45,595 nt of DNA, taken from contig JBBIJQ010000010.1 in the NCBI GenBank assembly GCA_037445915.1, forward strand, positions 1-45,595. Direction: 5' to 3'. Source of the stretch: Planctomycetales bacterium (GTDB lineage: Bacteria; 4484-113). Shown piece by piece: positions 7,101-29,153 of the stretch. The notes beneath the pieces are model-generated. The model did no database searches. It had not been told where the DNA came from and saw only the letters and a list, made by a program, of their open reading frames with translations. Position 1 is the stretch's first letter; every line of letters starts with the position of its first letter. The translations under genes and the position numbers were made by a program.

Positions 7101-8396
7101 GTGATAACCCGCCTAACCTGCGCTTTCGCGCTCGCGCTAGTTTTGGCGCTTGCGTTTGCCGCCTGCGTGCTTGCCGCAGACGATGATGACGCCGCGCCCG
7201 ACCTGACAGTCATCGCATTCATCACCGGCCAGCAAGCCCAATCGCAAGAAGCGAAAGAGGAAGACAAGCCTGCTGAAGAAACCGCGCCTGCCGAAGAAGC
7301 ACAGCCGGCTGATGAGGAAGATACGCAAGCCGCAGATGCGCAGGCTGATGAAGCAGCAGGGGAGCCTGCGGAAGAGGTTCAGCCTCCCGCAACGCCGGAG
7401 CAGGACGTCGCCGCCGGATTGGAGTTGTTGAAAACGGTTGAGGCGCAAGCGCAGGCAGAGCAGCCCGTGAAGCCGGAGAAGAAAGTAGGCGAATTCTTCG
7501 GGCCGCTGCAAACGCGCACGATGCACCCTCTGCACCAGTATCTTTTCAATTTCCCCGCCGACCGCGCACGGACGCTGAAGAAAGGGCATTCCGAGTTCGC
7601 GGTGCATCTCCAGGGCGCGAGCAATATAGTCAAGGAGACTTCGGGCGGCGCAATTGTTGACCTTGACCTGGAGAGTTGGACTTACCAGTTTGAGCTGCGC
7701 AAGTCTGCATGGGGCGGAGAGATTACTGCTATCGTCCCGCTGCGCGATAACACGCACGGCTTCATGGATAACTTAATAGACGGTTGGCATACGTTCTTTG
7801 GCCTTTTCTCAGGCGACCGTCCAAATTACCCCGCCAACGATTACCACTATTTCGTGCGCGATCCCCTTGGGAACACGCTTAACGTGCCTTCCGACCAATT
7901 CGGGTTTGGCGATATTAGCCTTGTGTGGAAACATGAAATCGGTGATAGCGCAGCCGACCATGCGCTTTCCTACCGCGTCGGCGTGAAGCTGCCAACCGGC
8001 GACTTTGACAAGGGCCTAGGCAGCGGCGGGGTGGATGCAGGCGTCGGCCTGGCATATGAAACGCTGGGCGAGAGATGGGCCGGATACGCCAACTTGAACT
8101 ATATCTTCACGAGCCAGGGCGACTTTGGCGGCTTCCAGGTTAACGACATCATTACCGGCTCGCTGGCGGCTGAATACCGCTTGCGGCATACTTGGTGGCT
8201 TACCGGCCAGGTTGACTACGCACAGTATCCGCTAACTACAGGCTCCAATTTGGATAAGGACTCGCTGGAACTGCTATTTGGCTTCCACAAGCTGCTGGAG
8301 AAGGAGCTTCTCTTCAGCGGCGGGTTTACTGAGGATATCAGCCTAGAGTCGTCGCCTGATTTCGGCATCATCGCGGAGCTGCGCTGGCGCTTCTAG
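7101..8396 (+). CDS. Secreted/outer-membrane beta-barrel protein (DUF3187-like)
   Basis: Signal peptide, acidic low-complexity linker, MDNLIDGWHTFFGL, VKLPTGD..GLGSG and C-terminal LRWRF. Family recognised by eye. Confidence 0.65.
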   Translation: MITRLTCAFALALVLALAFAACVLAADDDDAAPDLTVIAFITGQQAQSQEAKEEDKPAEETAPAEEAQPADEEDTQAADAQADEAAGEPAEEVQPPATPEQDVAAGLELLKTVEAQAQAEQPVKPEKKVGEFFGPLQTRTMHPLHQYLFNFPADRARTLKKGHSEFAVHLQGASNIVKETSGGAIVDLDLESWTYQFELRKSAWGGEITAIVPLRDNTHGFMDNLIDGWHTFFGLFSGDRPNYPANDYHYFVRDPLGNTLNVPSDQFGFGDISLVWKHEIGDSAADHALSYRVGVKLPTGDFDKGLGSGGVDAGVGLAYETLGERWAGYANLNYIFTSQGDFGGFQVNDIITGSLAAEYRLRHTWWLTGQVDYAQYPLTTGSNLDKDSLELLFGFHKLLEKELLFSGGFTEDISLESSPDFGIIAELRWRF

Positions 8397-8399
8397 CAG

Positions 8400-9056
8400 A
8401 TGAACATTGTGCGCGGAATAGCGTCTAATCAAGCGATGGCGCTTGTCCTAACGGCAGAGCTTATGGCCAACCGCGAAGCGAATGGTGTGCCCGCGCCGCC
8501 TTTTGAGGTGGAACTGGTAATGCGCACCCGCAGCGGCGACGATTCCGCGTTTGCGGAACTAGTCCAGCTCTACCAGACTCGTATCTTTAACTTCGTCCTT
8601 TCGCGGCTGCGCGACAGGCAGTTGGCGGAAGATGTGACACAGGAAGTGCTGGTCAAGGCCTATTACAACTTGGGGCGGCTTCGCGATGCCTCCAAGTTCA
8701 AGTCGTGGCTCTTTAGCATTGCGCATAACCACATGCGCGACCTTACGCGCCGCAAGCAGTTGAAGTTCGCGGATACTGAAGACGGGCACATTGAACATTA
8801 CGTGGACGGCGGCAACCCGGAAGTTGACCTGGCGCGCGACAGGCTGCAAGCCCTCGTGAAGAAAGCGCTGGCGAAGCTGAAGCCGGATCAGCGCGAGATA
8901 CTTCAGCTTTGCGACATTGAAGGCTTGAGCTACAAGCAGATCGCGGACATTATGCATATCCCGCTGGGAACAGTGCAGTCGCGCATTTATTACTCGCGCA
9001 AGCGGGTCAAAGAGATCCTTACCGGGGAGTTCGGTTACTCGGGTGACGAAATATGA
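8400..9056 (+). CDS. ECF RNA polymerase sigma factor
   Basis: AEDVTQEV, FKSWLFSIAHN (region 2); GLSYKQIADIMHIPLGTVQSRIY (region 4). True start may be slightly downstream. Confidence 0.95.
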   Translation: MNIVRGIASNQAMALVLTAELMANREANGVPAPPFEVELVMRTRSGDDSAFAELVQLYQTRIFNFVLSRLRDRQLAEDVTQEVLVKAYYNLGRLRDASKFKSWLFSIAHNHMRDLTRRKQLKFADTEDGHIEHYVDGGNPEVDLARDRLQALVKKALAKLKPDQREILQLCDIEGLSYKQIADIMHIPLGTVQSRIYYSRKRVKEILTGEFGYSGDEI

Positions 9057-9649
9057 GATGTGAAGATATCAGAGGGATTATGTGCGCCCTGGCGGACGGC
9101 GAAGTGACTCCGCGAGTCCGTTCGGAAGCGGAAGCGCACTTGAAGGCTTGCGCCGCATGTAGGGCGGAGCATTCCGCGCAGCTTGCTGTAAAAGGCATGC
9201 TTTCAAGTTTGCCGCAGGAGGACGCGCCTGCATTTCTAATGACGCGCGTGATGGCAGAGATTGCGCAGCGCAAGCGTGCGCACAGCCCGATAAAGCTGCG
9301 CTGGGCGTATTCAGGCGCGGCGGCATTGGTGCTGCTGCTTGTAGTTGCCGCCATCGGGGTCATGCACCCGGGCGGCAGCGCCCAAAACAGCGGCATATAT
9401 AAGGCGCTTCCCAACCAGCCCTCTGAGGTGCGGCTCGCTCCCGCCAACGGGCTGACGCACGCCAGCGCGGAAGCTGAATACCCGACTTTCGGCGAGTTTG
9501 TGCAGCAGAGGCATGAAGATGTCCGCGACAGCTTGCGCGTCCACCAGGAGTTTTCGCCCGGCCTAGAAAGCGCCGTTCGCGAGCTAAAGGGCTCAAACGG
9601 AATCTACAAAGAGCTGCCGGAAGACAAAGACAAGGAGAAGGGCAAATAG
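9053..9649 (+). CDS. Zinc-binding (zf-HC2) transmembrane anti-sigma factor
   Basis: HLKACAAC (HxxxCxxC) and a single TM. ATGA overlap with the sigma gene. Confidence 0.9.
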   Translation: MRCEDIRGIMCALADGEVTPRVRSEAEAHLKACAACRAEHSAQLAVKGMLSSLPQEDAPAFLMTRVMAEIAQRKRAHSPIKLRWAYSGAAALVLLLVVAAIGVMHPGGSAQNSGIYKALPNQPSEVRLAPANGLTHASAEAEYPTFGEFVQQRHEDVRDSLRVHQEFSPGLESAVRELKGSNGIYKELPEDKDKEKGK

Positions 9650-9658
9650 CTCCTTGAG

Positions 9659-10795
9659 ATGATGTCTGCATTATGCAAGCGGCTAAAACTGTCCCTCGCC
9701 GTATCGCTGGCAGCGCTGGCAGCGACGTCTATGGTGGCATTCGCAGCCGACGCGCAAGAGGTTGGATTTCGTGCGCAGAAAGCCCTTAGCGAGCAGGCGT
9801 TCACGGCAGACTTCACCGTCAAGATAGACAACAAGGCCGAAGCAGCGGCAGGCAAGCTAAGCCGCAATCCGCCTAGCCTAGTCCGCTTGGAGCATTACAA
9901 GGGTGGACAGCTAACCGACTATTATCTTGAAGGCAGCGGGCCGAGCGTTGAAGTGATACCATCCGAGAAGCGCGCGATTATCGTGCCCGGCAGGCGCATC
10001 GGGCTGCTCTTTGACCTTGTTTCCTACTCGCTGGAATCAGCGCGCAAGCACGGGAAGCTTACAGTTGCGCCAGCTGCCAGTTTTGGCCGCAAAACCCTCG
10101 TTGTCACCGGCGGCGCGGGCAATGCGACCTTTAAGCTAGTGCTGGATTCCAATGATTACCTGCCGCGCGAGTTCACAGCTTCGCGAGGCGAAGGGCGCGG
10201 GCTTACGGTGCTGATTGAAGGGCTGAAGGTTGTCTCCCCTTCGCACTTCCCCAAAGCGTTTTTCAGCGTGCCCGAGGGCTACCGCGTTTCCGGCCGCGCC
10301 CCCCGCCTCGGCAAGACGGAGCGCGAGCGCCTGCTTCGTTTCCAGGGGAGGCTTAGCGGGCCACTCTACGACATGCCGGCTGCACGGCGAAGCGCGAAGG
10401 CCGCCGATGCAGGCGCGGGCGCTGGCGAGAGCGTGTTCCTGCCGGTCCTTCCCACGCGCCTTCCGCCGGGGTTCGTCATTGACACCGTAACTCCGCTCTA
10501 TTTCTCCGACAATCTGCTCTACCACATTGAGCTGGTTGAGCCGGGCCAGCTCCAGCTAGTTTCCATCTTTGAGACGCAGCACCAGCGGTTGCTGGACGAG
10601 TTCCGCAAGTCGCGCAAGCAAAGCAAGGCGAATTACCTTGACCGCCAGTTTGACGAAAGCGGCATCTTCGTCATCATCATTTCAGATGACGTGGAGCAGG
10701 CGCAGCTCCAGGGGATATTTGATTCGCTTGCGCACCAGCCGCAGCTTGCGGTAGAGCTTCTCAACCGCGCGCTGGCGAACCTGCTCAGCGAATAA
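9659..10795 (+). CDS. Exported MucB/RseB- or LolA-like protein
   Basis: Signal peptide, FFSVPEGYRV and PVLPTRLPPGF. Third gene of the sigma/anti-sigma operon. Confidence 0.55.
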   Translation: MMSALCKRLKLSLAVSLAALAATSMVAFAADAQEVGFRAQKALSEQAFTADFTVKIDNKAEAAAGKLSRNPPSLVRLEHYKGGQLTDYYLEGSGPSVEVIPSEKRAIIVPGRRIGLLFDLVSYSLESARKHGKLTVAPAASFGRKTLVVTGGAGNATFKLVLDSNDYLPREFTASRGEGRGLTVLIEGLKVVSPSHFPKAFFSVPEGYRVSGRAPRLGKTERERLLRFQGRLSGPLYDMPAARRSAKAADAGAGAGESVFLPVLPTRLPPGFVIDTVTPLYFSDNLLYHIELVEPGQLQLVSIFETQHQRLLDEFRKSRKQSKANYLDRQFDESGIFVIIISDDVEQAQLQGIFDSLAHQPQLAVELLNRALANLLSE

Positions 10796-10821
10796 GCTCC
10801 TAAGCTATAATAATCAGCAGC

Positions 10822-11952
10822 TTGGCGGAAAACATAGGCCATTTTGATTCGCTTGAGCTCGTCGGGCAGGGCTCTATGGGCAAGGTTTACCGCGCCAGGG
10901 ATTCGCGCACCGGCGCGGCAGTTGCGCTTAAAGTCTTTTTCCCCGACACAACTGTAAGCGCGCAGCAGCAAGACGACCTTCTCGCCCGTTTCCAAAAAGA
11001 AGCCAGCGTCCTTACCACTATCCAACACCCCAACATCGTCGGCATCCATGAAGTCGGCAGCTACCAGGGGCAGGAATACATAGCGATGGAGTACCTTGAC
11101 GGGCCGAACCTAAAGGACCTGCTGGCGATGGGCGTCGCCTTTTCGGTGCAGGACACGGTGGACATCGGGGTACAGGCGCTCTCCGGCCTTGAGGCCTGCC
11201 ACAACGCAGGAGTCATCCACCGCGACATCAAGCCCGCCAACATAGTGAAGCTGGCTTCGGGCGTAGTGAAGCTCGCGGACTTCGGCATAGCGCGCATCCT
11301 TACCGACGCGACCATAAGCCGCACCGGCACGGTCGTCGGCACGCCCAACTACATGTCGCCGGAACAGGTTCGCGGCGGGGAGATAACGCCCGGTTCGGAC
11401 TTGTTCTCATTGGGCGTCGTCCTTTACGAGATGCTGACTAAACACAAGCCTTTTGACGCGGAGAACATCACTGCGATTATGTACAACGTGGTGAACCTCG
11501 CCGCGCCCCCGGCGTCTTTCTACGACGAGGAAATACCCAAGGCGATAGAGCATGTGCTGGCGCGGGCGATGCGCAAGATTCCTTCGGAGCGTTACCAGTG
11601 TGCGCGCGACTTCCAGCGCGACCTGCTCGCGTTTGACGCGGACGTGCCAATCAGCGAAGGCACTGTAGCAACGAATGCGCGCGCAGAGAACGCGCCGCCG
11701 GAAGCGGCTTTAGCGCAGTCGGGCAATGTCGTCTACTGCATTGACTGCGGCGCGGCCAACAACCCCAAGAACCTAATCTGCGCGCGCTGCTACCGCCAGC
11801 TGGTCAAGCGTGAAGCCGCTATCAGGCTTGCTGAGAGCATGTTGAAGGCGCCAAGCCCGGAGATGAGGAGCGACCGGATGCTCACGGCGGTGCTGAACTT
11901 CATCCTCGCGCTGCTGGTGCTCGCGGTTATCTACCTGTTCTTCCGCACCTAA
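10822..11952 (+). CDS. Hanks-type Ser/Thr protein kinase with zinc ribbon and C-terminal TM
   Basis: GQGSMGKVY, VALK, HRDIKPAN, DFG, GTPNYMSPEQ; CIDC...CARC; hydrophobic tail. Confidence 0.95.
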   Translation: MAENIGHFDSLELVGQGSMGKVYRARDSRTGAAVALKVFFPDTTVSAQQQDDLLARFQKEASVLTTIQHPNIVGIHEVGSYQGQEYIAMEYLDGPNLKDLLAMGVAFSVQDTVDIGVQALSGLEACHNAGVIHRDIKPANIVKLASGVVKLADFGIARILTDATISRTGTVVGTPNYMSPEQVRGGEITPGSDLFSLGVVLYEMLTKHKPFDAENITAIMYNVVNLAAPPASFYDEEIPKAIEHVLARAMRKIPSERYQCARDFQRDLLAFDADVPISEGTVATNARAENAPPEAALAQSGNVVYCIDCGAANNPKNLICARCYRQLVKREAAIRLAESMLKAPSPEMRSDRMLTAVLNFILALLVLAVIYLFFRT

Positions 11953-11956
11953 GGCG

Positions 11957-12925
11957 TTAGTCCGCCTCTATGTCAGGCTCATCATCTTCAGGCGACGAGT
12001 CGTCAAGCGTGCGCGGCCGGTATTTCAAAAAGCGCAGCAAGTTGCCCCGCTCGTTAAACGACACTTCGTCCATGAGGTTCTTAACCAGGAACAGCCCACG
12101 CCCATACATTCGCATGAACGATTCCGGATCAAGGTCTTCGTTAACGGAGCTATAGTCAAAGCCTGGGCCTTCATCCAACACGCTTACTTCCAGCCGTATC
12201 GCGTCTATTGAGGCAAAGATGGTGATGGACTTGCCGCGGTTGGCTACGTCCTCCATCTGCTCCAGGAGATACTTGCGGTAAACGCTGTGTCCGAGCACGA
12301 GGCACCGTTCTTTGCACTCCTTGTCCACTTGCAGGTTGCCGTGCTCAAAGGCATTAAGCAAAACTTCGTAGAGGGCGACTTTCACGTCGTTTAGCTGCGC
12401 GCCCTCCATTTGCCAGCAGTCCCGCACATTAGCAAAGATGTAGTTAATAATCTTTGAGAGGTAGATGTAGTTGTTTGGGATGCGGATTGTGAAGCTTTGG
12501 CTGCGGATAAAAGGGACTATCTCGCGGACGTCCGCCGTCTCGCGGTGGACGGCGAAAATGTTCTCAATGAGGGTGACGACCTGGTTGATGTCAAAAGGCT
12601 TCTTGATGAAGCTATTTGCCCCCAGCCGGATCGCGGAGATTGCATCCTCCATAGTGCCGTAGCCGGTAAGGATAATGACAGGGACGTTGATGCGCCTTCG
12701 CCTGATTTCGCCCAATAGCTCAATCCCGCTCATCTCCGGCATCTTGATGTCGGTGATTATGAGGTCGGGCATCATATTTTCAATTACTTTCAGCGCCTCA
12801 ACCCCGTTCCCAGCCTGGAGAACCTCGTAGCCGAGCGATTTTTGGATCTTGCTTGCGATGACGTCGCGGATTATCTCCTCGTCGTCAACGACTAATATCC
12901 GCTTAGGTAAGAGGGCATACTCCAT
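11957..12925 (-). CDS. Response regulator receiver fused to RsbW-like HATPase domain
   Basis: ILVVDD, TDIKMP, KKPF receiver motifs; EVLLNAFEHGN, DEGPGFD, GRGLFLV ATPase boxes. Confidence 0.9.
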   Translation of the reverse strand: MEYALLPKRILVVDDEEIIRDVIASKIQKSLGYEVLQAGNGVEALKVIENMMPDLIITDIKMPEMSGIELLGEIRRRRINVPVIILTGYGTMEDAISAIRLGANSFIKKPFDINQVVTLIENIFAVHRETADVREIVPFIRSQSFTIRIPNNYIYLSKIINYIFANVRDCWQMEGAQLNDVKVALYEVLLNAFEHGNLQVDKECKERCLVLGHSVYRKYLLEQMEDVANRGKSITIFASIDAIRLEVSVLDEGPGFDYSSVNEDLDPESFMRMYGRGLFLVKNLMDEVSFNERGNLLRFLKYRPRTLDDSSPEDDEPDIEAD

Positions 12926-13045
12926 GGCGCGCTAATACTAGCCGCGCAACCCAAAGCTGTCAAACGCTTCACCTTTGCCTGCCCATCTCCAAGCCGAATC
13001 AGTATAGTTAGTTAAAATTGGCAATTAGCGTTGTTATATTATTGC

Positions 13046-13062
13046 CAGTATATGCTATACTG
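13046..13062 (+). promoter_or_regulatory. Extended -10 promoter (TGcTATACT) embedded in inverted repeat CAGTATA-TGC-TATACTG
   Basis: TG at 13053-13054 and TATACT at 13056-13061, 49 nt upstream of the portal ATG. Perfect 7-3-7 inverted repeat. Extra CAGTATA half-site at 13000-13006. Confidence 0.65.
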
Positions 13063-13110
13063 TAAATGGGCGTGTAGTTATGCCGCCTAGAGCGCAGGAA
13101 CAACCCAACT

Positions 13111-14478
13111 ATGGCAATTAGAACTTGGCGAAACTTCAAGAAACTAGACAATTGCAGCCGGAGCTATCTGGATACCGATGTAGCCTGCGAGGAACGGCTA
13201 GCTAGGCTTGCAAAGCTGCGCCATCACTCGCGTTACTATGCTGGCAGCATCTACCGCTATCCCGGCGAATGGGCGGCCCAGTCCAACTACAGCCCCGGCG
13301 TCAAGCCGCCTGCTATATACGTGAACTATGCCCGCTGCCTAATTGACCGGTTGGCGTCGTTTAGCTTTGACCGGGCCGCAGGCATTAGCCTCATTCCCGG
13401 TGGCGAAGCTGTCAGCGAAAGCGCGCCTGACGCCGCATCCCGCTTCCTTGCAGGTTTCCTGCGCTCGTCACGTATCCTGGCGCGCCTCACCTCCGTTGCC
13501 AGGGAAGCGCTTCTCTTCGGCGATGTCCTCCTCCGCCTCCAACACACCCCCTCCTCCCACTTTCCCCTCGGCTTCTGCCTCGTGCCGGCAGAAGAATACG
13601 ACTACGAGCACAACCCACTAGACATCGCCGAAGTGCGCTTCATCCGCGAAGAATACTTCTATCGCGGCGGCAACGGGGCTATGCTTGCCCACCGCGAAGA
13701 CTACTACCCCGATAAGACCATTATTTACCGCGACCAGCCTGCCGAGCAGTTGTCGCTTCGGCAAGCGGCGCTTGCTCTCTTGAAGCCTGTTGCAGCGCCC
13801 AGGGAATTCGCAGTTGCACATGTGCTTCCCAGTTCCTTCGGGGTTATTCCTGCTGTGCAGGTGCGCAACCGGCCGCAAACAGGCCAGAAGTTCGGCATAA
13901 GCGAACTGGCAGACCTCACACCGCTGCTAGACGACATTAACTGGAAGCTCGCCCAGCGTTCGCGGAATATCTCGCGGACGATGAACGCCATCATCAAGAA
14001 CATCAACGGCCGCATCGTGACCGGCGAGTATGACGACACCCAAATCATCAGCGTGATGGGAGACAACCCGCAGCTTGATTATCTCGTGAACAACAGCGAC
14101 CTCGCGCCAGTGAATGCGCATATCACCGACTTGAAACAGGCGCTGGCGGAGCTGACAGGCGTAGTGATGCTAAGCCCCGAGAAGCTTACCAGTGTAGGCG
14201 CGATGTCGGGCTTCGCCCTGTCAATCCTCTACGAGCCGCTGTTGAATGCAGCGCGCACAAAGCGCCGCGAGATTGGCGGATGCGTGGAGGACTTCCTAAA
14301 GCTTGCATTGAAAGCAGGTGCTGCGCTGGGGCATCTCTCAGTTGAAGAAGCGCAGGCCGCGCAGCCAACGATTACGTATGCGCCCGACATGCAATTCACC
14401 GAGCAGGAAAAGCTCACCCGCCTGCGCCGCGAGATGCTGGCATCGCAGAACAACCTTACGCTGAACCCCGATAACTAG
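13111..14478 (+). CDS. Phage portal protein (SPP1 gp6-like)
   Basis: NYARCLIDRLASF, EALLFGD, FGVIPAVQVRN, GISELADLTPLLDDIN and AMSGFALSILYEPL match the SPP1-type portal pattern. First gene of the head module. Confidence 0.88.
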   Translation: MAIRTWRNFKKLDNCSRSYLDTDVACEERLARLAKLRHHSRYYAGSIYRYPGEWAAQSNYSPGVKPPAIYVNYARCLIDRLASFSFDRAAGISLIPGGEAVSESAPDAASRFLAGFLRSSRILARLTSVAREALLFGDVLLRLQHTPSSHFPLGFCLVPAEEYDYEHNPLDIAEVRFIREEYFYRGGNGAMLAHREDYYPDKTIIYRDQPAEQLSLRQAALALLKPVAAPREFAVAHVLPSSFGVIPAVQVRNRPQTGQKFGISELADLTPLLDDINWKLAQRSRNISRTMNAIIKNINGRIVTGEYDDTQIISVMGDNPQLDYLVNNSDLAPVNAHITDLKQALAELTGVVMLSPEKLTSVGAMSGFALSILYEPLLNAARTKRREIGGCVEDFLKLALKAGAALGHLSVEEAQAAQPTITYAPDMQFTEQEKLTRLRREMLASQNNLTLNPDN

Positions 14479-14488
14479 GAGGCGCGAT

Positions 14489-14773
14489 ATGAACGAGATC
14501 ACCAACACCGAAACTACAGACAATTGCGATCCTGAAGCCGAGCCTACTGCCGACGGCGAAGCTCACGAAACTGAGCCAGCACCTTTGCACAATGCGGAAC
14601 ACTCACAACCGCCGATGAATCTTGAGCAGATGGTGCGGGAGGCGATAGACCGGCGCATTGCCGAGCTGTCTCCCCCGCGCCGCGAGATTCCCCGCGTGGA
14701 AGCTGCATCGGGCGAACTGCTGCCGGAACAGCGGCTGAGGCTTGGCTACGGAACGCGCGAACCCAACACTTAG
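14489..14773 (+). CDS. Putative short capsid scaffolding protein
   Basis: Acidic, low-complexity 94 aa immediately before the MCP. C-terminal LPEQRLRLGY resembles scaffold tails. GGAGG RBS. Confidence 0.55.
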   Translation: MNEITNTETTDNCDPEAEPTADGEAHETEPAPLHNAEHSQPPMNLEQMVREAIDRRIAELSPPRREIPRVEAASGELLPEQRLRLGYGTREPNT

Positions 14774-14795
14774 CAACTAAACACAGGAGAAACGA

Positions 14796-15707
14796 ATGGC
14801 ACTTACATTGGCTGAAGCAGCCAAACTTGAAACCGATTACTTGCGCCGTGGCGTCATTGAGACCTTCGGCGAATTCTCGCCCGTCCTGGAAGACCTGCAG
14901 TTCGTCCAGGTGCAGGGCAACTCTTACCGCTACAACCTTGAAGACACGCTGCCCGAGGTTGACTTCCGCGCCGTCAACGCGCCCTACAACGAAAGCGCAG
15001 GCACGGTCACCGCGCAAAGCGAGACGCTGGCGATTTTCGGCGGCGTGGTGGACGTTGACCGCTACCTCCAGCAGGTGCGCGGCTCGGTGAACGACCAGCG
15101 CGCATTGCAGACGCGCCTGAAAGTCAAGTCGCTGGCGCTCGCGTTCACGCGCGAGTTCTTCAAGGGCGATGCGACAGCGAACCCCGACAGCTTCAACGGC
15201 CTTGCCAAGCGCCTTACCGGCGGCCAAATCATCACTGCCGATGCGGGCGCAGGCAACGGCGATGTGCTCAAGCTGGAGCATATTGACCAGCTCATTGACA
15301 CGGTCTGGAACGGCCCGGACGTGCTCTACATGAACAAGGCCAACCGCCGCAAGCTTATCCAGCTTGGGCGCGAGACCGAGCTGGTCACGGTGGAGATGGA
15401 CGCTGCCGGACACGTGCGCACCTACTACGACGGCATCCCGGTGAAGGTCGTGGAAAAGGACAACCACAACGACGACATCCTCGGCTTTGACGAGACCGTC
15501 GGCGCCGAGGACGAATGCTCCAGCATCTACGCCGTGCGCTACGGCGCGGACGAGTTCGTCTGCGGCCTTACCAACGGCGGCATCCAGGTGGAAGACCTGG
15601 GCCTCATCGCCAACCCGCCTGTTTACCGCACCCTCATTGAGTGGTATGTAGGCCTGGCGGTCTTCAACCCGAAATCCGCAGCCCGCCTCAAGGGCATCCA
15701 CCAGTAG
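14796..15707 (+). CDS. Major capsid protein (HK97 fold)
   Basis: MALTLAEAAKL..LRRGVIETF, GNSYRYN, FRAVN, GGVVDVDR, FNGLAKRL, SSIYAVRYG and YRTLIEWYVGLAVFNPKSAARLKGI form a recognisable phage MCP pattern. AGGAG RBS. Confidence 0.93.
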   Translation: MALTLAEAAKLETDYLRRGVIETFGEFSPVLEDLQFVQVQGNSYRYNLEDTLPEVDFRAVNAPYNESAGTVTAQSETLAIFGGVVDVDRYLQQVRGSVNDQRALQTRLKVKSLALAFTREFFKGDATANPDSFNGLAKRLTGGQIITADAGAGNGDVLKLEHIDQLIDTVWNGPDVLYMNKANRRKLIQLGRETELVTVEMDAAGHVRTYYDGIPVKVVEKDNHNDDILGFDETVGAEDECSSIYAVRYGADEFVCGLTNGGIQVEDLGLIANPPVYRTLIEWYVGLAVFNPKSAARLKGIHQ

Positions 15708-15716
15708 GCAAACCCC

Positions 15717-15965
15717 ATGGACCCGAAGCGACTCCGAGGCTACATCCGACTCGCCTGCGCAGTTACCGGCGCTGGACGCGCTAAAGAACGGCGCGCGCTT
15801 AGTGCGCTTGGCGGCAATGACGCGCTCTATGAAGTCACGCTCCCCAACCGCCATTACACCGGCCCATTGCTGGGAGAGTGGTTTGAAGACGGCATGGCTC
15901 AGGTGGGAGAAGCAGCCTCGGAGCGTTTCAGGTCGAGGGGATATGCAGTCCGCAAGCTTTGCTAA
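15717..15965 (+). CDS. Small capsid-associated phage protein
   Basis: PNRHYTG...F.DG...FRSRGYAV resembles small proteins that follow this MCP type. Function unknown. Confidence 0.5.
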   Translation: MDPKRLRGYIRLACAVTGAGRAKERRALSALGGNDALYEVTLPNRHYTGPLLGEWFEDGMAQVGEAASERFRSRGYAVRKLC

Positions 15966-15977
15966 TCGCTTAAGCCA

Positions 15978-16562
15978 ATGAACACCAACCTTGATTACAT
16001 CCGCACGTTTCTGGGCGAGCGCAGCAGCGAAAGCCCACTGCTCGCCGATGATGAGCTTAGGGCGCTGATGTCGCTTTCCATCCGCCGCGAGCTTCCCGAA
16101 CGGCTGGGCGCCCGTATGGCTATGCAGGGCGTAGCATGCACCCGAGTCTCATCGGACGGATTGATGCGCTTCACGCTAAAGCCGCTAGCGCACGCGCAGA
16201 CGGAATACCACGCAGGCATAGGCAACTGGCTTGACGGCGCTTACGCCATTCGCGTAGGAGATGTGAACTACCTGCCTGCCGAGGGCGATGTCGTGGACAC
16301 GTTTGGCGGCCGCATCCTCTTCGCGCAAACTCCGCCGCCCGGCGTGGTCACAGTTGAAACATACTTGATTGACTTGCGCGCAGTGCTCATTGAAGTGTTG
16401 CGCATCTTCAAGGCATCGCACTCGCGGCTATCTCTGAAAACGAACCTCGCCGGAATAAGCGTTGACCTCACGGGAATCTGCGCCGGCATTCAAGCGGAGA
16501 TTGATGCGCTGTCCACCGGCTACGAACTTCCCTTCGCCGTGTCAGAGGACTTCCCGCACTAA
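15978..16562 (+). CDS. Putative head-tail adaptor
   Basis: Position after the capsid genes; helical N-terminus IRTFLGE..PLLADDEL. Assignment mainly by synteny. Confidence 0.5.
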   Translation: MNTNLDYIRTFLGERSSESPLLADDELRALMSLSIRRELPERLGARMAMQGVACTRVSSDGLMRFTLKPLAHAQTEYHAGIGNWLDGAYAIRVGDVNYLPAEGDVVDTFGGRILFAQTPPPGVVTVETYLIDLRAVLIEVLRIFKASHSRLSLKTNLAGISVDLTGICAGIQAEIDALSTGYELPFAVSEDFPH

Positions 16563-16960
16563 TGGGCGCGCCGATGCTAAGCCGCGTGTTTGAAGAACTG
16601 CTGCGCCATCTTGGCGGCAGCGCGGAAGATGTGTCGCTGCGCACGTATGTGGAGACGGCGCAGGCAGAGCCCGAAGCGGGAATGCCGCCGCTGCGCACGT
16701 TTAGCGACATGCCGATTATCCCGCGCCCGATTGTGCTGGATGCAGACGGCGCACAGGCTGAAGGCTTAAAGCCAAGCTTCGCCGGAAGGCGCGGCGTTGG
16801 CGGATGCCGCAAGCTTGTGGTTTCAGGCGGCTGCGAAGTGCGGCTTGGAAGCATCCTCGCGTTTGCAGACGCGGAATGGGAAGTGACTGGGATGCGCGCG
16901 CCAGTGCTTTACGGGGAGACGCCGCTAAAGCTCTTGCTCGCAAGGAGGTTGCAACCGTGA
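16562..16960 (+). CDS. Putative head closure/stopper protein
   Basis: TAATG coupling; beta-rich C-terminus VRLGSILAFADAEWEVTG. Assignment by synteny. Confidence 0.45.
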   Translation: MGAPMLSRVFEELLRHLGGSAEDVSLRTYVETAQAEPEAGMPPLRTFSDMPIIPRPIVLDADGAQAEGLKPSFAGRRGVGGCRKLVVSGGCEVRLGSILAFADAEWEVTGMRAPVLYGETPLKLLLARRLQP

Positions 16961-17394
16961 TTCTTCACACGACATATAGCGTCAACAAGTGGCTTTCTGG
17001 GCGCCTGAGCACATTCAGCGCCGTGGCGTTTATGGACACGCAAGACCTGCCGCTCCCCGGCTATCAAGTCATTTGGGGCGAAGAGCGCGAGATGCAGGTG
17101 CGGCCGCGAGGAGCATTGTCGGGGGCGAGGTTTACCATATACTGCGCTGCGCCAATAAGCCAGTGGCACCTCTCGCGCAGGCTTGCCACATGTGCACTTT
17201 CGGTTCTGCGCGGAGCCGCAGGCGGCTTCACCATCCCCCGCTACCGTTATCCGTTTAACAAAGGCGACCTGCCCATCGGGCGCATCGCCCTGCGCGACAT
17301 CTCCGCTCGGGAGCTGCACGATCCGCTACATCCCGAGCTTGCGCTGCACGTCGTCCGTGCGACCGCGCTCACCATCAACCCGCCCACCTGCTAA
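16957..17394 (+). CDS. Putative tail terminator/completion protein
   Basis: GTG at 16957 overlaps the previous stop (GTGA), with AAGGAGG RBS at 16942-16948; 145 aa; directly before the tube gene. Assignment by synteny. Confidence 0.45.
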   Translation: MILHTTYSVNKWLSGRLSTFSAVAFMDTQDLPLPGYQVIWGEEREMQVRPRGALSGARFTIYCAAPISQWHLSRRLATCALSVLRGAAGGFTIPRYRYPFNKGDLPIGRIALRDISARELHDPLHPELALHVVRATALTINPPTC

Positions 17395-17403
17395 GGAGCT
17401 GAA

Positions 17404-18162
17404 ATGTCCTTCAACTACGATGCGCTGGCCCTCGGCGGCTGCGAAATATACATCAACGACTGCCACGCCGGTTTCGCTTCCGGCATCACGCTGCGCAAAA
17501 CGGTGGAACGCCTGCCCGTTGACATTGTCTCTAACGGCGAGCTGCACACGCGCCACATGATTCCGCTTCGGCGCACGCTGCACGTGGAAGTGCGGCTTAA
17601 AGAACTCAGCCCGGCTGCGCTGTCGCTGTTCGCATCGGGCGAAATAAGCATTGTTCTTGCGCCAGCCAACAGCGGCGTAACCGATTACGTCCGCCTGTTT
17701 GCCGGAATGCCGACGGCGCTGCGGCACTTGCCTGCGACAACTCCGGTTGTGAAAAGCGCAAACGGCTCGGTGGCTTACACCGAAGGCGATGATTACGTAT
17801 CAGACTGGGCGAACCGCACTTTCAGCCTTGCGCAAGACTCGGATATCGCGCCGGGGCAGCTCCTCAAAGTGAGTTACACCGCCGACATCCCGGCCGGCCG
17901 CGAAGTGAAGTTCGCAGGCGGCGGCTTGATCACCGCGAAGATGGAAGCGCTGCACCGATACCCTGACGGCGTGAGCTTCGCCGTGTTGCACTTGCGACGC
18001 GTGGAGCTGGACGCCTCGGGCTTGCTCGCGTTGGGCGGCGAAGACATAACTGAGATACCCATTGCCGGGCGATGCCTTTCCGATGCCGCGCATGCCGATT
18101 CGCCTTTCGGCTATGTGCGCTTTCACGGCGGAACAATGCCGCAGATGGAGAGCCGCTTGTGA
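17404..18162 (+). CDS. Putative major tail tube protein
   Basis: LALGGCEIYIN start, VEVRLKELSPAALSL, YTEGDDY insertion domain and C-terminal SPFGYV. AAGGAG RBS. Confidence 0.7.
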   Translation: MSFNYDALALGGCEIYINDCHAGFASGITLRKTVERLPVDIVSNGELHTRHMIPLRRTLHVEVRLKELSPAALSLFASGEISIVLAPANSGVTDYVRLFAGMPTALRHLPATTPVVKSANGSVAYTEGDDYVSDWANRTFSLAQDSDIAPGQLLKVSYTADIPAGREVKFAGGGLITAKMEALHRYPDGVSFAVLHLRRVELDASGLLALGGEDITEIPIAGRCLSDAAHADSPFGYVRFHGGTMPQMESRL

Positions 18163-18707
18163 GCCTGTTCATTGGCCAGCGCGATGAGGACATTGACGCG
18201 CTGAACACGCGCATTGACGAGCTGGCGCGCGAAGTTGCAGCGCTGAAATCACTTCAGCGAGAGGAAACCGATGCGAGCGATGGCGCAGGCACAAGCAAGC
18301 TGGACGACACGCTGGACTCTGCGCTGGAAAACGCCTTGCGGCGCATAGGCATCACGATTGCGCGCGGTGGATCGCTGGATGATGCTGTGGGCGCAGTCGC
18401 CTCGCAGCTTGAGCATGTTGCCGGAAGGAAGCTGGAAAGCTGGCTGGTCGCTGAAGCTGGCGGGGGATTGCTGGGCGCGCTCGTCGGGGGTGCTGGGGCC
18501 GCGCTGTTCAGCGATGCCATTGACGCCGTTGTCCGCGCAATAAGGCCGCGCCGCCTCTACTTGCCCGAAGTTGAAGATTCAACGTTTGCTGCGTTCCCAA
18601 TGTATGCCGCGCGCGGGAGCATCTTCCCGCAAGGAGATGAGCGCGATGACGCGCTTGAGCGAAGCCTAGCGCAAGAACTTGCGCGGGCGATTTCGGAGGA
18701 AAGCTAA
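18159..18707 (+). CDS. Very short tape-measure-like protein
   Basis: GTG at 18159 (GTGA overlap); 182 aa; N-terminal coiled coil and Gly/Ala-rich hydrophobic AGGGLLGALVGGAGAALF. Lies between the tube and baseplate genes. Confidence 0.55.
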   Translation: MSLFIGQRDEDIDALNTRIDELAREVAALKSLQREETDASDGAGTSKLDDTLDSALENALRRIGITIARGGSLDDAVGAVASQLEHVAGRKLESWLVAEAGGGLLGALVGGAGAALFSDAIDAVVRAIRPRRLYLPEVEDSTFAAFPMYAARGSIFPQGDERDDALERSLAQELARAISEES

Positions 18708-19160
18708 ATGTTGAGACTTTGGTTCGGCGAAACAACCGCCGACGCGATAGGCATTTATCCGCTGCTGCTTGAGCTTGAGCACGGCGAGAGCTTCGCAGTC
18801 GTGCCAACGCTCTCCGGCGTGCTTCACCGCATCGCCTTCTCGCAAACGCGCTATCCCTCAGCCGTGCGCATAACGCTGCCTGTTTCGCAGCTTGGGCTGC
18901 GAAGCGCTGAAAACAAAAGCCTGCGCGAACTAATCACTGCGCGTTTGGAAAACGGGCGGCCGGTAACAGCGTTTATTGAAAGCACAGGTATCGCCTTGAA
19001 CATCGCGTTCACTGCGCTGAGGCCCGCCGCGATAGTTGATGAGGAACTTACGGGAAGTGCAGGCCAGCAAAGCGCCGCGCTGGAAGGCATCGTTATCGCG
19101 GACGGTTCGTTCACTAACTTCAATTCGCTTGCAAGCGTTACCTGGAGGGCGCGCAGCTAA
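18708..19160 (+). CDS. Putative distal tail (Dit-like) protein
   Basis: 150 aa after the TMP-like gene; TLSGVLH motif. Assignment by synteny. Confidence 0.4.
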   Translation: MLRLWFGETTADAIGIYPLLLELEHGESFAVVPTLSGVLHRIAFSQTRYPSAVRITLPVSQLGLRSAENKSLRELITARLENGRPVTAFIESTGIALNIAFTALRPAAIVDEELTGSAGQQSAALEGIVIADGSFTNFNSLASVTWRARS

Positions 19161-21073
19161 TGGCATTCACGAAAACAGCACGCGATTATGTCGCGCAATC
19201 CGACAAGCGCATCTATTACACGCTTGAAGTTCGCGGCTTCCACGAAGAGAATGCGCAGTGGTCGCGGCTGCCGCTGGCGCGCGAAGGCTTCCGGCTGGTA
19301 AGCGACCGCGCGGAGCTGGCAGCATCGCTGGAATTCACGCTTCCTGCGGCGAGCGCGCTGCATTTCAGCGAGCTAAACCCCAACAACCCGCTGGCGCTGT
19401 TCAGCGAGGCGCGCCTGACCTGCGAGATGGCCGGCGAAAGCGAAGTGCTGTTTCTCGGCTTTATCAACGAGATACGCGAGGAAGGCGGCGTAATGCGCTG
19501 CTTTGCCCGCGATAATGCGCAGAAGTTATCGCGCGCAGTTTGCGAAGTGGAGATGGAAGGCAAAACGACAGCCGAGCTTGCGCTTTCGCCGCTAATCGTT
19601 CTGGCAAGCGAATACGACGCCTGCACATTCGGCCTTGACCCGCATAAAACGCCGGACGGCTTCAGCGCAGCAGGCGTGCGCCGCGCCTGGAAGCCCGGCG
19701 ATATCCGCGTTTATGCGAATGGCGCGGAAGTCCAGCCGGACCTTTATCGCGTGTATCCCGAAAGCGGCGTCGTGCGCTTCGCGCAGCCGATTACGCAATT
19801 GTTGAGCGTTACCGGCGTGCGCTGTTGCATTGAAGGCACGAGCGATGCTGCAGTGGCCGTTACGAAAGCGCTGCAATATCCGCAAGGCAAAGGCGGCATA
19901 GGCGCAGGCTCAAGTGACTGCGACTTGCCGGATATCGGCGTTGACCTGCACCGCTTGGAATGGCGGCGCGGCGCAGGCAAAACGTCGGAGTTCATCGCTG
20001 CGCTTAGCGAAAGGCTACCACGCAACTACCGCTTCTGGCACGACCCGTCACGCGGCGTGTTCACGCATGCGCTGATGGAGCAAAACCTGCTTGCGCCGCA
20101 TGCCCTCAGTGGCATCGCGTCATTCGCCCGCATCCGCAGCCGCAAGGGCATATACACTCGCGTCATCGTGAATGGTACGCGCACCAACGCGCCTAACCTC
20201 GCGCCGGTCGCGGCAGTCACCGACTTGCAGCAAAACGTGGGCGAGGTGTTTGAGTGGAGCGGCAACGAGCGCACCGTGGGGCAGGGGAGCATCGCGCTTA
20301 TCATTGACGGCGACTCCAACCACGGGTTCGGGCGGCACAACGCACCGTATCTTTACCAGTTCTACGACTTTGCGCTGATTGACCTGGGGCTTGACGCAGA
20401 AGGCAAACCTCCGCGTGTCAGCGCTATTGAGCTTACCGCCGCGAATTCGCACAACGTGAATTCGCAGAAGTCCGCTAATACCAAGTTCAGCTTTGGCTAT
20501 GAAGTCCTGGGAAGCCTTAACGGCGCGGATTATCAGCGCATTTCGCCGGACGCTCAAATGCTGCTCGCGCCGCTGCAAACGACGCGCTTAGGCAACCTCA
20601 CGATGCAACGCATGCGCTACGTAAAGCTGCGCGTAAAACCGGCGAAGGACGGCGTAAGCAACGACAACGACCCAGGGCTGGCGCTGAATGAAATACGCAT
20701 TTACGGCGACGACAGCTTCACGACCGAAGCCGCGCTCCAAGATACCGACCCGCAAGGAGCGTTTTACTGTCCGGAGCTGCTGGAGAAGTGCGAAGGCGCG
20801 GGGGCGCAGGTGATGCTGGTGGACGTTGGCGATAAGCTTCCTGAATGCGAAGCGGCGAAGCTCGCGGCCGACTTGCTCATAGAATCGCTTTGCGCCTACA
20901 CAAGCTTTGAAGTGGAATGCGCTGCTGACCCCACCGTGCGGGTTGGGCAGACTGTGTCCTGCGCCCATCCCGTCACCGGCGGTGTGCAGTCATTCATCGT
21001 TGAGCGAGTTGAGCTGATGCCCGGGCGTGTGCGCATCTGCGGCACCAACTACAACGCGGAGGTGCTGCGATGA
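19160..21073 (+). CDS. Putative baseplate hub/tail-tip protein with inserted carbohydrate-binding-like domain
   Basis: LFLGFINEI...ARD start, IYTRVIVNG, ADPTVRVGQTV..FIVERV end (hub-like). Internal IIDGD...IDLG...YEVLGSLNGADYQ...RYVKLRV...LNEIRIYG is discoidin/F5-8-like. Confidence 0.65.
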   Translation: MAFTKTARDYVAQSDKRIYYTLEVRGFHEENAQWSRLPLAREGFRLVSDRAELAASLEFTLPAASALHFSELNPNNPLALFSEARLTCEMAGESEVLFLGFINEIREEGGVMRCFARDNAQKLSRAVCEVEMEGKTTAELALSPLIVLASEYDACTFGLDPHKTPDGFSAAGVRRAWKPGDIRVYANGAEVQPDLYRVYPESGVVRFAQPITQLLSVTGVRCCIEGTSDAAVAVTKALQYPQGKGGIGAGSSDCDLPDIGVDLHRLEWRRGAGKTSEFIAALSERLPRNYRFWHDPSRGVFTHALMEQNLLAPHALSGIASFARIRSRKGIYTRVIVNGTRTNAPNLAPVAAVTDLQQNVGEVFEWSGNERTVGQGSIALIIDGDSNHGFGRHNAPYLYQFYDFALIDLGLDAEGKPPRVSAIELTAANSHNVNSQKSANTKFSFGYEVLGSLNGADYQRISPDAQMLLAPLQTTRLGNLTMQRMRYVKLRVKPAKDGVSNDNDPGLALNEIRIYGDDSFTTEAALQDTDPQGAFYCPELLEKCEGAGAQVMLVDVGDKLPECEAAKLAADLLIESLCAYTSFEVECAADPTVRVGQTVSCAHPVTGGVQSFIVERVELMPGRVRICGTNYNAEVLR

Positions 21074-21867: not shown

Positions 21868-21892
21868 TAACACTACCTCCAAGGAGCTACAT

Positions 21893-22135
21893 ATGGACGC
21901 CAAAACCCTTACCAAGAAGCTGCTCGCATTCCTCCTCCATCTCGCCTTCGCGCTTTACGAAACCGAAGCGAAACTCATTTTCCAATTCATCGCGCAGGTG
22001 AAAGCCGAAGGCCTCACCGGCGACGATGCGCGCCGCGAAGTCCTGCGCCGCTTCCGCCTGCACTGCGGCGATACGCTGCGCGACAGCGTCGTGAATTTCC
22101 TCATTGAAGCCGCCGTCGTCGCGGGGAAGCCTTAA
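21893..22135 (+). CDS. Holin-like protein (LL-H-like pattern)
   Basis: N-terminal hydrophobic helix, GLTGDDARREV and C-terminal LIEAAV. AAGGAG RBS. Confidence 0.5.
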   Translation: MDAKTLTKKLLAFLLHLAFALYETEAKLIFQFIAQVKAEGLTGDDARREVLRRFRLHCGDTLRDSVVNFLIEAAVVAGKP

Positions 22136-22138
22136 GTA

Positions 22139-22420: not shown

Positions 22421-22422
22421 TT

Positions 22423-23768: not shown

Positions 23769-23795
23769 TGGCTGGCGATTATACCAGCGCTGCGC

Positions 23796-24164: not shown

Positions 24165-24182
24165 ATTTGCCCTCCGCTGTGA

Positions 24183-25625: not shown

Positions 25626-25651
25626 GGCGTGATAGTAGCATAGCGCTGCAG

Positions 25652-29060: not shown

Positions 29061-29153
29061 CCCATCCTCCTATGCGAGATTGGGATTTAAGCACAAGCTT
29101 GAATTAGCAGCTTGTGCTATTATTGCTCTAGCCAAGTGTATTGGGGGTTCGGT

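Follow-up and report, generated by a model that had tools for sequence, protein, structure and literature searches.

A portal-to-endolysin operon and an unlinked large-terminase gene in an uncultured bacterial lineage: a probable gene transfer agent-like system

The particle operon and its upstream junction

About 17 genes on the plus strand, from position 13111 to 22893, form one operon of 9.8 kb that runs from portal to endolysin and encodes a siphovirus-type head, a long tail and lysis functions. The window, by which we mean the whole stretch of 45,595 nucleotides analysed, belongs to a 90%-complete genome (G000) of genus g1 in family f1. The host lineage is small, uncultured and of phylum level; it comprises 24 species, deposited as Planctomycetales or Planctomycetia MAGs.

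The first gene of the operon (13111–14478) encodes a portal protein of 455 aa (PF05133, 1.8e-14; phrog_64, 4.4e-19; dN/dS 0.10, here and below for G000 against its relative G001). Its AlphaFold2 model (mean pLDDT 74.6) matches over the whole length the portals of NF5 (3e-13), Bxb1, SU10 and SPP1 (gp6) in Foldseek, and the portal fold is confirmed at the level of this predicted structure. Between the portal and capsid genes lies a gene for a 94-aa protein (14489–14773) without a family match, kept in family f1 (35–73%; dN/dS 0.38), which by its position may be a short scaffold. The major capsid protein (303 aa, 14796–15707; phrog_212, 6.1e-80; PF20911, 7.9e-20; dN/dS 0.04) is 98% identical in G001, 81–84% in family f1, 66–70% in family f3 and 51–52% to capsid proteins of Paenibacillus phages. 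Four small genes follow (82, 194, 132 and about 196 aa; 15717–17394), which lack family matches, are kept in f1 and partly in f3 (dN/dS 0.12–0.20) and, given where they lie, likely encode head-completion and neck proteins. The start at 16804 assigned to the last of these overlaps the preceding gene and is probably too early.

The tail genes begin with a major tail protein of 252 aa (17404–18162; phrog_807, 3.3e-13; dN/dS 0.11), kept in f1 (55–90%) and f3 (33–38%). The next two genes (about 211 and 150 aa; 18072–19160), also kept in relatives, have only sub-threshold Pfam matches (dN/dS 0.25 and 0.17); the true start of the first is probably after 18162, and its product, which combines a coiled coil with a hydrophobic stretch rich in Gly/Ala, is possibly a chaperone or a short tape measure. 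Two larger proteins of 637 and 265 aa (19160–21867; dN/dS 0.14 and 0.15), without family matches, were named tail-tip or baseplate-type by position. The former is 61–84% identical in f1 and 39–41% in f3 and does not resemble a tape measure. Then come two small proteins of 80 and 93 aa (21893–22420), kept in f1 (58–89%; dN/dS 0.22 and 0.10), of which the 93-aa one may be a holin or spanin because a hydrophobic N-terminal segment precedes a coiled coil. The last gene (22423–22893) encodes an N-acetylmuramoyl-L-alanine amidase, the endolysin (PF01510, 1.6e-22; phrog_1493, 7.9e-25; dN/dS 0.10). Downstream, the minus strand carries genes for a PHP-domain protein (22890–23768), a membrane protein (23796–24164) and the CCA enzyme (24183–25991). 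Plus-strand ORFs at 22638–23477, 23474–23983 and 24040–24381 were rejected as spurious, the real genes being on the opposite strand (dN/dS 1.6 and 0.9 for the first two).

Upstream of the portal, a divergent gene on the minus strand (11957–12925) encodes a response-regulator receiver (Response_reg, 2e-31) fused to an RsbW/SpoIIAB-type kinase-like domain (HATPase_c_2, 1.4e-18). The gap between the two genes (12926–13110) is 185 bp, and it was claimed from the letters alone that neither a terminase gene nor a terminase Walker A motif is to be found there or in the cluster. Both observations hold. ORF coordinates gave the same gap, Pfam searches of 45 window ORFs (23 + 22) and PHROGs searches of 23 returned no terminase family, a Walker A regular expression over 37 window proteins matched only an ABC-transporter ATPase and one spurious ORF, and tblastn of the G000 large terminase described below against the window reached a best E of 1.7.

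An assembly misjoin near 13000, which would have refuted the claim, is ruled out. The regulator adjoins the portal in the same order in four other genomes of family f1 (G001, G002, G005 and G008; 75–89% identity), and contigs from four sequencing runs in a single study, perhaps including the source sample, bridge 12926–13110; no RNA run is among the runs that contain the stretch. Nor is a simple deletion indicated by relatives: terL lies upstream of the portal in none of the seven checked. The genes flanking the operon are host genes (ECF sigma and anti-sigma factors, a Ser/Thr kinase, the CCA enzyme, NifU, LeuRS and AddAB), and no integrase or replication family was found among the 45 window ORFs or around terL.

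An unlinked large terminase and the inheritance of both loci

A single intact large-terminase gene was found in G000, on a separate contig from the portal (C35, 15290–16792) and between an Asp/Asn/Lys-type tRNA synthetase gene and a serpin gene. Genome searches with PF03237 hit C35 only (27.4 bits, cut-off 22), those with PF03354, PF04466 and PF20441 gave no match, and phrog_2 recovered C35 at 2.4e-32 together with one weak 17.9-bit match on C13. The protein (500 aa) aligns to phrog_2 over residues 40–496 (4e-35). Across seven aligned sequences from two families, about 40% identical, Walker A (CGRRWGKT, 61–68), Walker B (VVFDE, 152–156) and four nuclease aspartates (D278, D382, D486, D490) show no variation; in the terminase family, the Walker and acidic residues are established as catalytic. 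Searched against the PDB, the alignment profile matched the TerL ATPase of Thermus phage P74-26 (4znj, 2.7e-37) and, on its C-terminal part, another large terminase (5oea, 7.5e-16). By these features, an N-terminal ASCE ATPase and a C-terminal RNase H-like nuclease, the protein looks like a functional large terminase.

The earlier note had proposed that packaging is supplied in trans, by an unlinked terminase or by a helper phage, or else that the particle contains no DNA. The first option now has a candidate. The invariance of the ATPase and nuclease motifs in TerL makes a DNA-less particle unlikely, and a helper phage loses ground to the fixed site and vertical inheritance described below and to a survey of G000 itself, in which the common portal and capsid families yielded nothing further and only one clear terL turned up. 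The survey included PF05065 (HK97-type) and PF04860, which we take to be the capsid and portal families of RcGTA; neither has a match. No phage genes lie beside terL in any of six genomes (G000, G001, G005, G008, G021 and G023). PKD/dockerin proteins recur near it in relatives, and we dismissed them as linked genes, this family being spread over 26 contigs of G000 and its proximity a matter of chance.

We identified no small terminase in family f1. In f3, a 203-aa HTH_23 protein and a 131-aa ORF upstream of terL were considered as candidates and set aside, neither having a homologue in G000. PHROGs searches with these candidates and with the P0003 family described below gave nothing significant, and the Atlas returned only leads under 0.9 on the small-terminase question.

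The expectation that an orphan terL would accompany the cluster was borne out across the lineage, both in co-occurrence and in co-diversification. The portal is present in 14 of the 24 species and terL in 12, while the 10 species that lack the portal also lack terL. By family, the counts for portal and terL are 9/9 and 7/9 in f1, 4/4 and 4/4 in f3, 1/1 and 1/1 in f4, and 0/10 and 0/10 in f2. The two exceptions, G002 (93% complete) and G003 (77% complete), gave no terL by protein or profile search, which could reflect loss or assembly dropout beside a repeated gene. Wherever both genes occur (12/12 genomes), they are on different contigs; positions and contig extents put a minimum of about 90 kb between them in G005 and of about 79 kb in G023, too far for both to fit into one headful of ordinary size. 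Since f2, of the same order as f1, lacks both genes in all 10 species, the distribution calls for either a loss or repeated gain, and the unrooted LeuRS tree, with its three deep groups, cannot decide between the two.

Trees of portal, TerL and LeuRS from the same 11 genomes are congruent at every supported node. The block DUF3187–ECF–antisigma–378aa–kinase–regulator–operon–CCA is syntenic in G001, G002, G005 and G008, and the site is shared by four genera. Both loci are under purifying selection: values of dN/dS between G000 and G001 are 0.04–0.38 across all 19 genes (terL 0.27), next to 0.08–0.18 for flanking host genes, and the frames of the operon and of terL stay open in relatives down to 34–46% identity. 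Third-position GC of the operon genes and terL (0.70–0.83) is within about 0.02 of the range of five host genes (0.71–0.80).

The viral relationships of the two loci are less uniform. In a tree of 11 lineage TerLs and 75 viral ones, the lineage occupies one side of a branch (SH-aLRT 90). The viral relatives of TerL differ from those of the capsid protein. The portal operon and terL may or may not derive from one phage. None of 80 viral loci with a related terL holds a homologue of any other cluster gene, and a pattern search of IMG/VR gave no portal relatives.

Promoter similarity and a multi-copy gene family

A promoter-like element precedes the portal on the plus strand (13032–13073), with TGTTAT at 13032–13037, a −10-like TATACT at 13056–13061 and ATGGGCG at 13067–13073. 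The palindrome CAGTATA-N3-TATACTG (13046–13062) overlaps the −10 and had been suggested as a signal shared with terL. We rejected this: it occurs once in the genome, is absent from the terL locus and is limited to genus g1, and with 903 perfect 7+3+7 inverted repeats in the genome, 0.09 would be expected per 185 bp, so that the palindrome is unremarkable.

What the two loci share instead is a wider promoter and leader similarity. The 100 nt upstream of the portal and the 100 nt upstream of terL align with a local score of 19.0, the best non-self score of 59,346 genome windows (next 17.5), whereas 602 other upstream regions reach no more than 15. When the portal promoter was compared with the genome by plain BLAST, terL matched at only E = 15, and rank tests were used instead. 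A g1 pattern has five matches in G000 (portal, terL, two copies of the family called here P0003-type and one other gene) and four in G001 (portal, terL and two P0003-type copies), with none for the reversed-pattern control. A different pattern is shared in genus g5 by the portal operon, the terL operon and further P0003-type copies (three matches in G008, six in G005, none in G007; control 0). These patterns were derived post hoc, from the same sequences that they then matched. Across genera, only a TGCTATAATGTAAA-like −10 sequence of the portal promoter is kept, and in family f3 the portal and terL loci share only a near-consensus TTGACA/TATAAT promoter that is possibly common.

The P0003-type family has two to three copies per genome, in G000 one at C71, 4092–4850, and a second, broken one. 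All copies that could be checked carry the promoter motif of the portal operon and terL, and in genus g5 one copy lies directly upstream of terL, the usual position of a small terminase. The AlphaFold2 model of P0003 (pLDDT 49.7) is too poor for a structure search, and a complex prediction with TerL scored 0.00, which speaks neither for nor against binding. There is a small chance, in our view, that the particle system is a regulon of three kinds of loci in which the P0003-type paralogues act either as interchangeable small-terminase-like subunits choosing the packaged DNA or as auto-activating regulators firing all loci. Either role, if true, would amount to a host control over packaging that, to our knowledge, is not described for any GTA.

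As for control by the regulator gene, separate host control of packaging had been expected from a split motor. The conserved regulator block beside the operon fits this loosely, and the divergent regulator may or may not be the controller of the operon; however, the block is absent from beside the portal in f3, the second family, and such control is therefore not established.

A probable host-owned particle system and its known counterparts

We consider it probable that these loci constitute a vertically inherited, GTA-like particle system, dispersed, co-regulated and owned by the host lineage. Ownership by the host is argued from the absence of integrase, replication and lysogeny genes in the operon, from its fixed chromosomal site and from its vertical inheritance. 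A head–tail–lysis operon with a distant terL under a similar promoter is how one would expect a gene transfer agent, rather than a dying prophage, to be arranged. We infer that a common factor would switch on the portal operon, terL and the P0003-type family, that TerL made from its unlinked site would fill capsids with DNA through the portal, and that the amidase would lyse the producer cell; the particles would carry host DNA, as gene transfer agents do. The one line of evidence for DNA packaging is the intact set of ATPase and nuclease motifs in TerL. Particle capacity might be far above the 9.8 kb of the operon itself, and a small GTA-type head is not implied, since the capsid protein shares 51% identity with its counterparts in phages whose genomes measure 50–56 kb.

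The reading that competes best, although we hold it to be unlikely, is a killer particle of the PBSX type: a domesticated element kept for killing competitors, whose packaged DNA is incidental and undelivered. The evidence of domestication, split loci and lysis would be the same for such a particle, and sequence alone does not separate a GTA from a defective-phage bacteriocin. Nothing in the data specifically opposes this reading, and the conservation of TerL sites shows only that DNA processing matters. A satellite or helper-dependent mobile cluster that borrows the terminase of a helper phage, with the C35 terL belonging elsewhere, seems very unlikely to us. It would account for an operon without terS and terL and for the differing viral relatives of TerL and the capsid protein, but the cluster has its own tail and lysis genes and host flanks, with no integrase, replication gene or repeat-bounded island; its site is fixed and syntenic in four genera of the family, its trees follow the host tree, and G000 has neither another portal or capsid of the common families nor, like the five relatives examined, phage genes adjoining terL. 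Two unrelated prophage remnants, decaying independently and co-occurring by chance or through non-functional shared ancestry, are already disfavoured and rank as the least credible reading, for although isolated phage genes are common in bacterial genomes and terL was not found in G002 and G003, dN/dS is near host-gene values in all 19 genes, frames remain open, catalytic motifs are invariant, presence and absence match across four families and the promoter is shared in two genera.

Returning to the GTA-like system, GTAs (viriforms) are described as having caudovirus-like particle proteins and an endogenised genome, often in several loci, that lacks a self-replication or integration module; they are mostly inherited vertically and co-diversify with the host, encapsidate mostly random host DNA in a head too small for all particle genes, and deliver it to other cells (PMC9662315). 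Here, portal, capsid, major tail protein and endolysin families were identified, both loci have host genes on either side, portal and terL sit on separate contigs in each of the 12 genomes with both genes, and congruent trees, synteny and dN/dS indicate vertical inheritance, with the caveat that the 10 species of f2 have neither gene. Established GTA lineages are few in the sources drawn on: mostly Alphaproteobacteria, plus Brachyspira and recently Faecalibacterium (PMC9662315, PMC12946183). In a search of the literature on GTAs and Planctomycetes, none of the titles or abstracts listed describes such an element. If our reading is true, this would be a further, independently domesticated GTA system in an uncultured phylum-level lineage.

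The nearest precedent for the split layout is BhGTA (VSH-1, Brachygtaviriformidae) of Brachyspira hyodysenteriae. Its head–tail–lysis cluster has no terminase, and the single identifiable terL, of unvalidated role, maps outside the cluster as delineated, is conserved throughout the host clade and stands apart from viral TerLs in the tree (PMC9662315). The G000 system resembles it in all these respects and differs in host phylum and in being known from genes alone, whereas particles and gene transfer have been shown experimentally for BhGTA. A shared promoter and a co-marked multi-copy family are present in the G000 system and not described for BhGTA in the consulted sections of that source (PMC9662315). 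BhGTA gave rise to the still unvalidated idea that a particle cluster is served by an orphan terL at an unlinked site; our data support this idea and provide a clean case at the sequence level of a packaging motor separated from the portal with a matching promoter kept. For annotation, the case cautions against taking every terminase-less head–tail cluster, or every isolated terL, for prophage debris.

In RcGTA of Rhodobacter capsulatus, terL lies in the main cluster and adjoins the portal gene, whereas in G000 the split is between these two genes. RcGTA (Rhodogtaviriformidae; terL is g2) is likewise phage-derived, vertically inherited and scattered, over five loci under cellular regulators (PMC9662315). 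G000 does not belong to the RcGTA-like group, as it lacks PF05065 and PF04860, its capsid being phrog_212/PF20911, its portal PF05133 and its terL unlinked. FpGTA I of Faecalibacterium prausnitzii, whose operon of about 10 kb includes head genes derived from phages and was read as a GTA (PMC12946183), is similar in its compact operon and non-proteobacterial host; it differs in holding a possible TerS, TerL and portal in one operon, while in G000 TerL is unlinked and we found no TerS. Among phages, Paenibacillus phage Unity (NC_055031.1) has the 51–52% identical capsid protein, the only match to the window in BLAST. Its genome of about 50 kb differs in carrying terS–terL directly upstream of the portal, a minor head protein and a 211-aa scaffold, and agrees with the G000 operon in the order portal, capsid, tail.

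A particle operon that begins at the portal

The particle operon occupies 13111–22893 of the plus strand and comprises about 17 tightly packed genes. The first encodes the portal (ATG at 13111; PF05133, phrog_64), and it also includes the major capsid protein (14796–15707; phrog_212 at 6.1e-80), the major tail protein (phrog_807) and, as the last gene, an N-acetylmuramoyl-L-alanine amidase. For the remaining genes even a threshold of E = 1 yields no family match, yet they are kept in relatives. The window takes up the entire contig, one of 120 in a 1.79-Mb metagenome-assembled genome that is 90% complete.

The observation that this operon starts at the portal, with terminase genes missing, is confirmed. 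As the earlier note had claimed, a gap of 185 bp separates the portal ATG from the start of the divergent regulator (12925 on the minus strand), and the cluster has no Walker A motif: a regular expression run over 37 window proteins matched only an ABC ATPase and one spurious ORF. No terminase family is found among 45 ORFs (Pfam) or 23 ORFs (PHROGs) of the window, and searching it with the genome's own TerL as query detected no terL remnant (best E 1.7). A misjoin at the regulator–portal junction can be set aside; the arrangement is identical in four other genomes and is bridged by contigs of four sequencing runs, all from one study. The other possibility raised, terL directly upstream of the portal in relatives, was encountered in none of the seven relatives examined. 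In those of family f1, to which our genome belongs, the portal is preceded by the regulator block, and in those of f3 by other host genes (an epimerase; triosephosphate isomerase and a HicAB pair; a dockerin protein).

Upstream lie an ABC transporter, a DUF3187 protein, an ECF sigma factor with its zf-HC2 anti-sigma factor, a 378-aa unknown, a Ser/Thr kinase and the divergent receiver-HATPase_c_2 gene; downstream are NifU, a PKD/dockerin protein, OsmC, a ComEA-like protein, LeuRS and AddAB. Family searches of the window ORFs (Pfam/PHROGs) returned no integrase, replication or lysogeny family. The block from DUF3187 to the receiver-HATPase_c_2 gene (7101–12925) neighbours the operon in four f1 genera, not in f3, and may be a control module or merely an old neighbour. 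Three plus-strand ORFs past the amidase (22638–24381; 279, 169 and 113 aa) were rejected as off-frame artefacts because the two with a measured dN/dS have values of 1.6 and 0.9 and conserved minus-strand genes occupy the same DNA. The minus strand past the amidase carries a PHP-domain gene (22890–23768), a membrane protein gene (23796–24164) and, beside the latter, the gene of the CCA-adding enzyme.

An unlinked terminase gene and its inheritance

Whole-genome profile searches revealed one clear terL, located on contig C35, where PF03237 matches at 15467–15880 inside a 500-aa ORF (15290–16792) that phrog_2 covers from residue 40 to 496 (4e-35). PF03354, PF04466 and PF20441 have no match in the genome, and the sole additional phrog_2 match is one of 17.9 bits on contig C13, from a profile that also gives matches in 11 of 14 control genomes. 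Walker A, Walker B and four nuclease-domain aspartates are invariant in an alignment of seven TerLs from two families, and the profile of this alignment matches solved Thermus phage TerLs (4znj at 2.7e-37, 5oea at 7.5e-16) as well as T4 gp17. The gene is flanked by a divergent class II Asp/Asn/Lys-type tRNA synthetase gene and a serpin gene.

In the genome set used, the lineage is ranked as its own phylum and class with just 24 species. The portal occurs in 14 of these (f1 9/9, our genome counted; f3 4/4; f4 1/1; f2 0/10) and terL in 12 (f1 7/9; f3 4/4; f4 1/1; f2 0/10), so the proposed co-occurrence of an orphan terL with the cluster is borne out, including its joint absence from all ten f2 species. 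Family f2 either lost the particle system or never had it; the unrooted LeuRS tree, with f1, f3 + f4 and f2 as three deep groups, is compatible with both. In the f1 genomes G002 (93% complete) and G003 (77% complete) terL was not found, even with the profile. Relatives' terL is frequently located at contig ends, and dropout from assembly is plausible; the contig-end position would fit a repeated gene alongside. Portal and terL are always on separate contigs where both are present, at a minimum distance, from positions and contig extents, of ~90 kb in G005 (genus g5 of f1) and ~79 kb in G023 (f3). The TerL search, run over 41 genomes in all, also gave distant matches at 30–31% identity in two genomes outside the lineage.

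Identity to our genome drops in parallel for LeuRS, portal and TerL: 92%, 91% and 83% in G001, of the same genus (g1); 72%, 62–63% and 65–67% in g5; and 52–53%, 39–44% and 40–46% in f3. Maximum-likelihood trees of the three proteins from the same 11 genomes are concordant at all supported nodes, and when 75 viral TerLs plus a distant bacterial one are included, a branch with SH-aLRT 90 separates the 11 lineage TerLs from the rest. Portal, capsid, tail protein, amidase and terL have dN/dS values of 0.10, 0.04, 0.11, 0.10 and 0.27 between our genome and G001; for host flanking genes the range is 0.08–0.18. Third-position GC is within ~0.02 of the range spanned by five host genes. The portal family is narrow, with 25 proteins at E <= 1e-10 among 8,000 candidates scored out of 5.8 billion, and a pattern search of IMG/VR found no portal relatives. 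The capsid protein is far better conserved than other operon genes (98% in G001, 81–84% in f1, 66–70% in f3).

Promoter similarity between portal and terL

The palindrome CAGTATA-N3-TATACTG, which the earlier note proposed to look for at an orphan terL, is present at 13046–13062 as a single copy in the genome and is absent at terL. Palindromes of the same form number 903 (0.09 expected per 185 bp), and this one overlaps the -10-like TATACT of the portal promoter. The similarity that we do find runs from a TGTTAT box past the -10-like hexamer and an ATGGGCG box into the leader. Local alignment of the 100 nt upstream of each gene scores 19.0; 602 other upstream regions reach at most 15 (mean 7.9, s.d. 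1.4). Among 59,346 genome windows, the terL window is the top non-self match to that of the portal (runner-up 17.5); in the reverse comparison, the portal window is tied third. Plain BLAST of the portal promoter against the genome gives the terL match only E = 15. The -35-like box upstream of the portal (13025–13040) shows strain variants in contigs that further runs of this study yielded, and one of them, T>A at 13040, is the base found in G001 too.

A g1 pattern has five matches in our genome (portal, terL, two copies of the multi-copy protein family P0003 and a DUF6642 gene) and four in G001 (portal, terL, two P0003-family copies), with none for the reversed control. At the level of sequence, the similarity is found independently in g5, where terL is second in its operon after a 315–363-aa gene and the operon's upstream region matches that of the portal in the same genome with a score of 22, by a sequence other than that of g1: GGTGTCCNCTTTT ... 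GCTATAAT. The g5 pattern has three matches in G008, six in G005, none in G007 and none in the control, located at the portal operon, the terL operon and further P0003-type paralogues. Both patterns were written post hoc from the sequences they match. In f3, portal and terL loci have in common merely a near-consensus sigma-70 promoter. The DUF6642 gene behind the fifth g1-pattern copy (2027–2629 on contig C37, locus L052 at 1871–2629) may be a chance match, because none of the nine g5-pattern matches precedes such a gene.

Every checked P0003-family copy bears the promoter-like motif of the portal operon and terL. Our genome has one copy of 252 aa (C71:4092–4850, locus L039) and a second split over the starts of contigs C96 and C74; f1 relatives have two or three. 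The family is all-helical with two conserved helical blocks and has no Pfam or PHROG match; its Atlas leads, each under 0.9, include small-terminase families, and the structure model is of poor quality. In g5, one copy immediately precedes terL, the usual place of the small terminase. The family could act as a small terminase or a regulator, or have some other role. In f3, an unrelated small ORF takes this place instead (L038:6075–6686 in G021, L023:358–936 in G019, L022 in G022, L037:7607–8002 in G023). In the first three genomes it encodes a ~200-aa protein with an N-terminal HTH_23, plausibly a small terminase, of which no homologue was found in our genome.

A probable GTA-like system and its alternatives

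The description that fits the element best is that of a GTA-like system, new and independently domesticated, whose portal and terminase are split between loci that have a promoter motif in common. The unlinked terL would supply packaging for the particle operon in trans, and the two loci would be co-regulated through their common motif. We consider a dispersed, co-regulated, host-owned packaging system reasonably likely. We infer a DNA-transfer particle, and hold true gene transfer with less confidence than the packaging system, a PBSX-like killing particle being the alternative. Among the three readings of the earlier note, packaging by an unlinked terminase is the one supported, terL being apparently intact and on a different contig from the portal wherever both are found. 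Supply by a helper phage is unsupported: common portal and HK97-capsid families yield nothing beyond the known loci, and no second prophage is visible within the assembled part of the genome. A DNA-less particle is likewise unsupported.

Phage records with a match to the capsid protein number 310, the best at 51% identity (Paenibacillus phages). In one of these, Unity, terS and terL come first, followed by portal, minor head protein, scaffold and capsid; the capsid protein is its sole match to the window. Viral TerLs share 29–34% identity with the lineage TerL over the full length, and no homologues of other cluster genes occur on their contigs. GTA criteria described in PMC9662315 comprise packaging of host DNA, head capacity and delivery, along with three that sequence can address: caudovirus-like genes, endogenised dispersed loci and vertical co-diversification. 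Each of these three is found here. The closest precedent is BhGTA of B. hyodysenteriae, whose single terL, conserved genus-wide and of unvalidated role, likewise lies outside the particle cluster according to that source. The same source describes RcGTA genes as spread over five loci. FpGTA I is described as having a possible TerS, TerL and portal together in one operon (PMC12946183).

PKD/dockerin surface proteins are very abundant in our genome (window 29112–31376 and 26 contigs), so that finding them near terL, as in several relatives, is probably a coincidence. HicA-type toxin genes adjoin terL in G008 of g5 (L036:7441–7994) and the portal operon in G021 of f3 (L032:5048–5526), the latter with a HicB-like antitoxin gene alongside.
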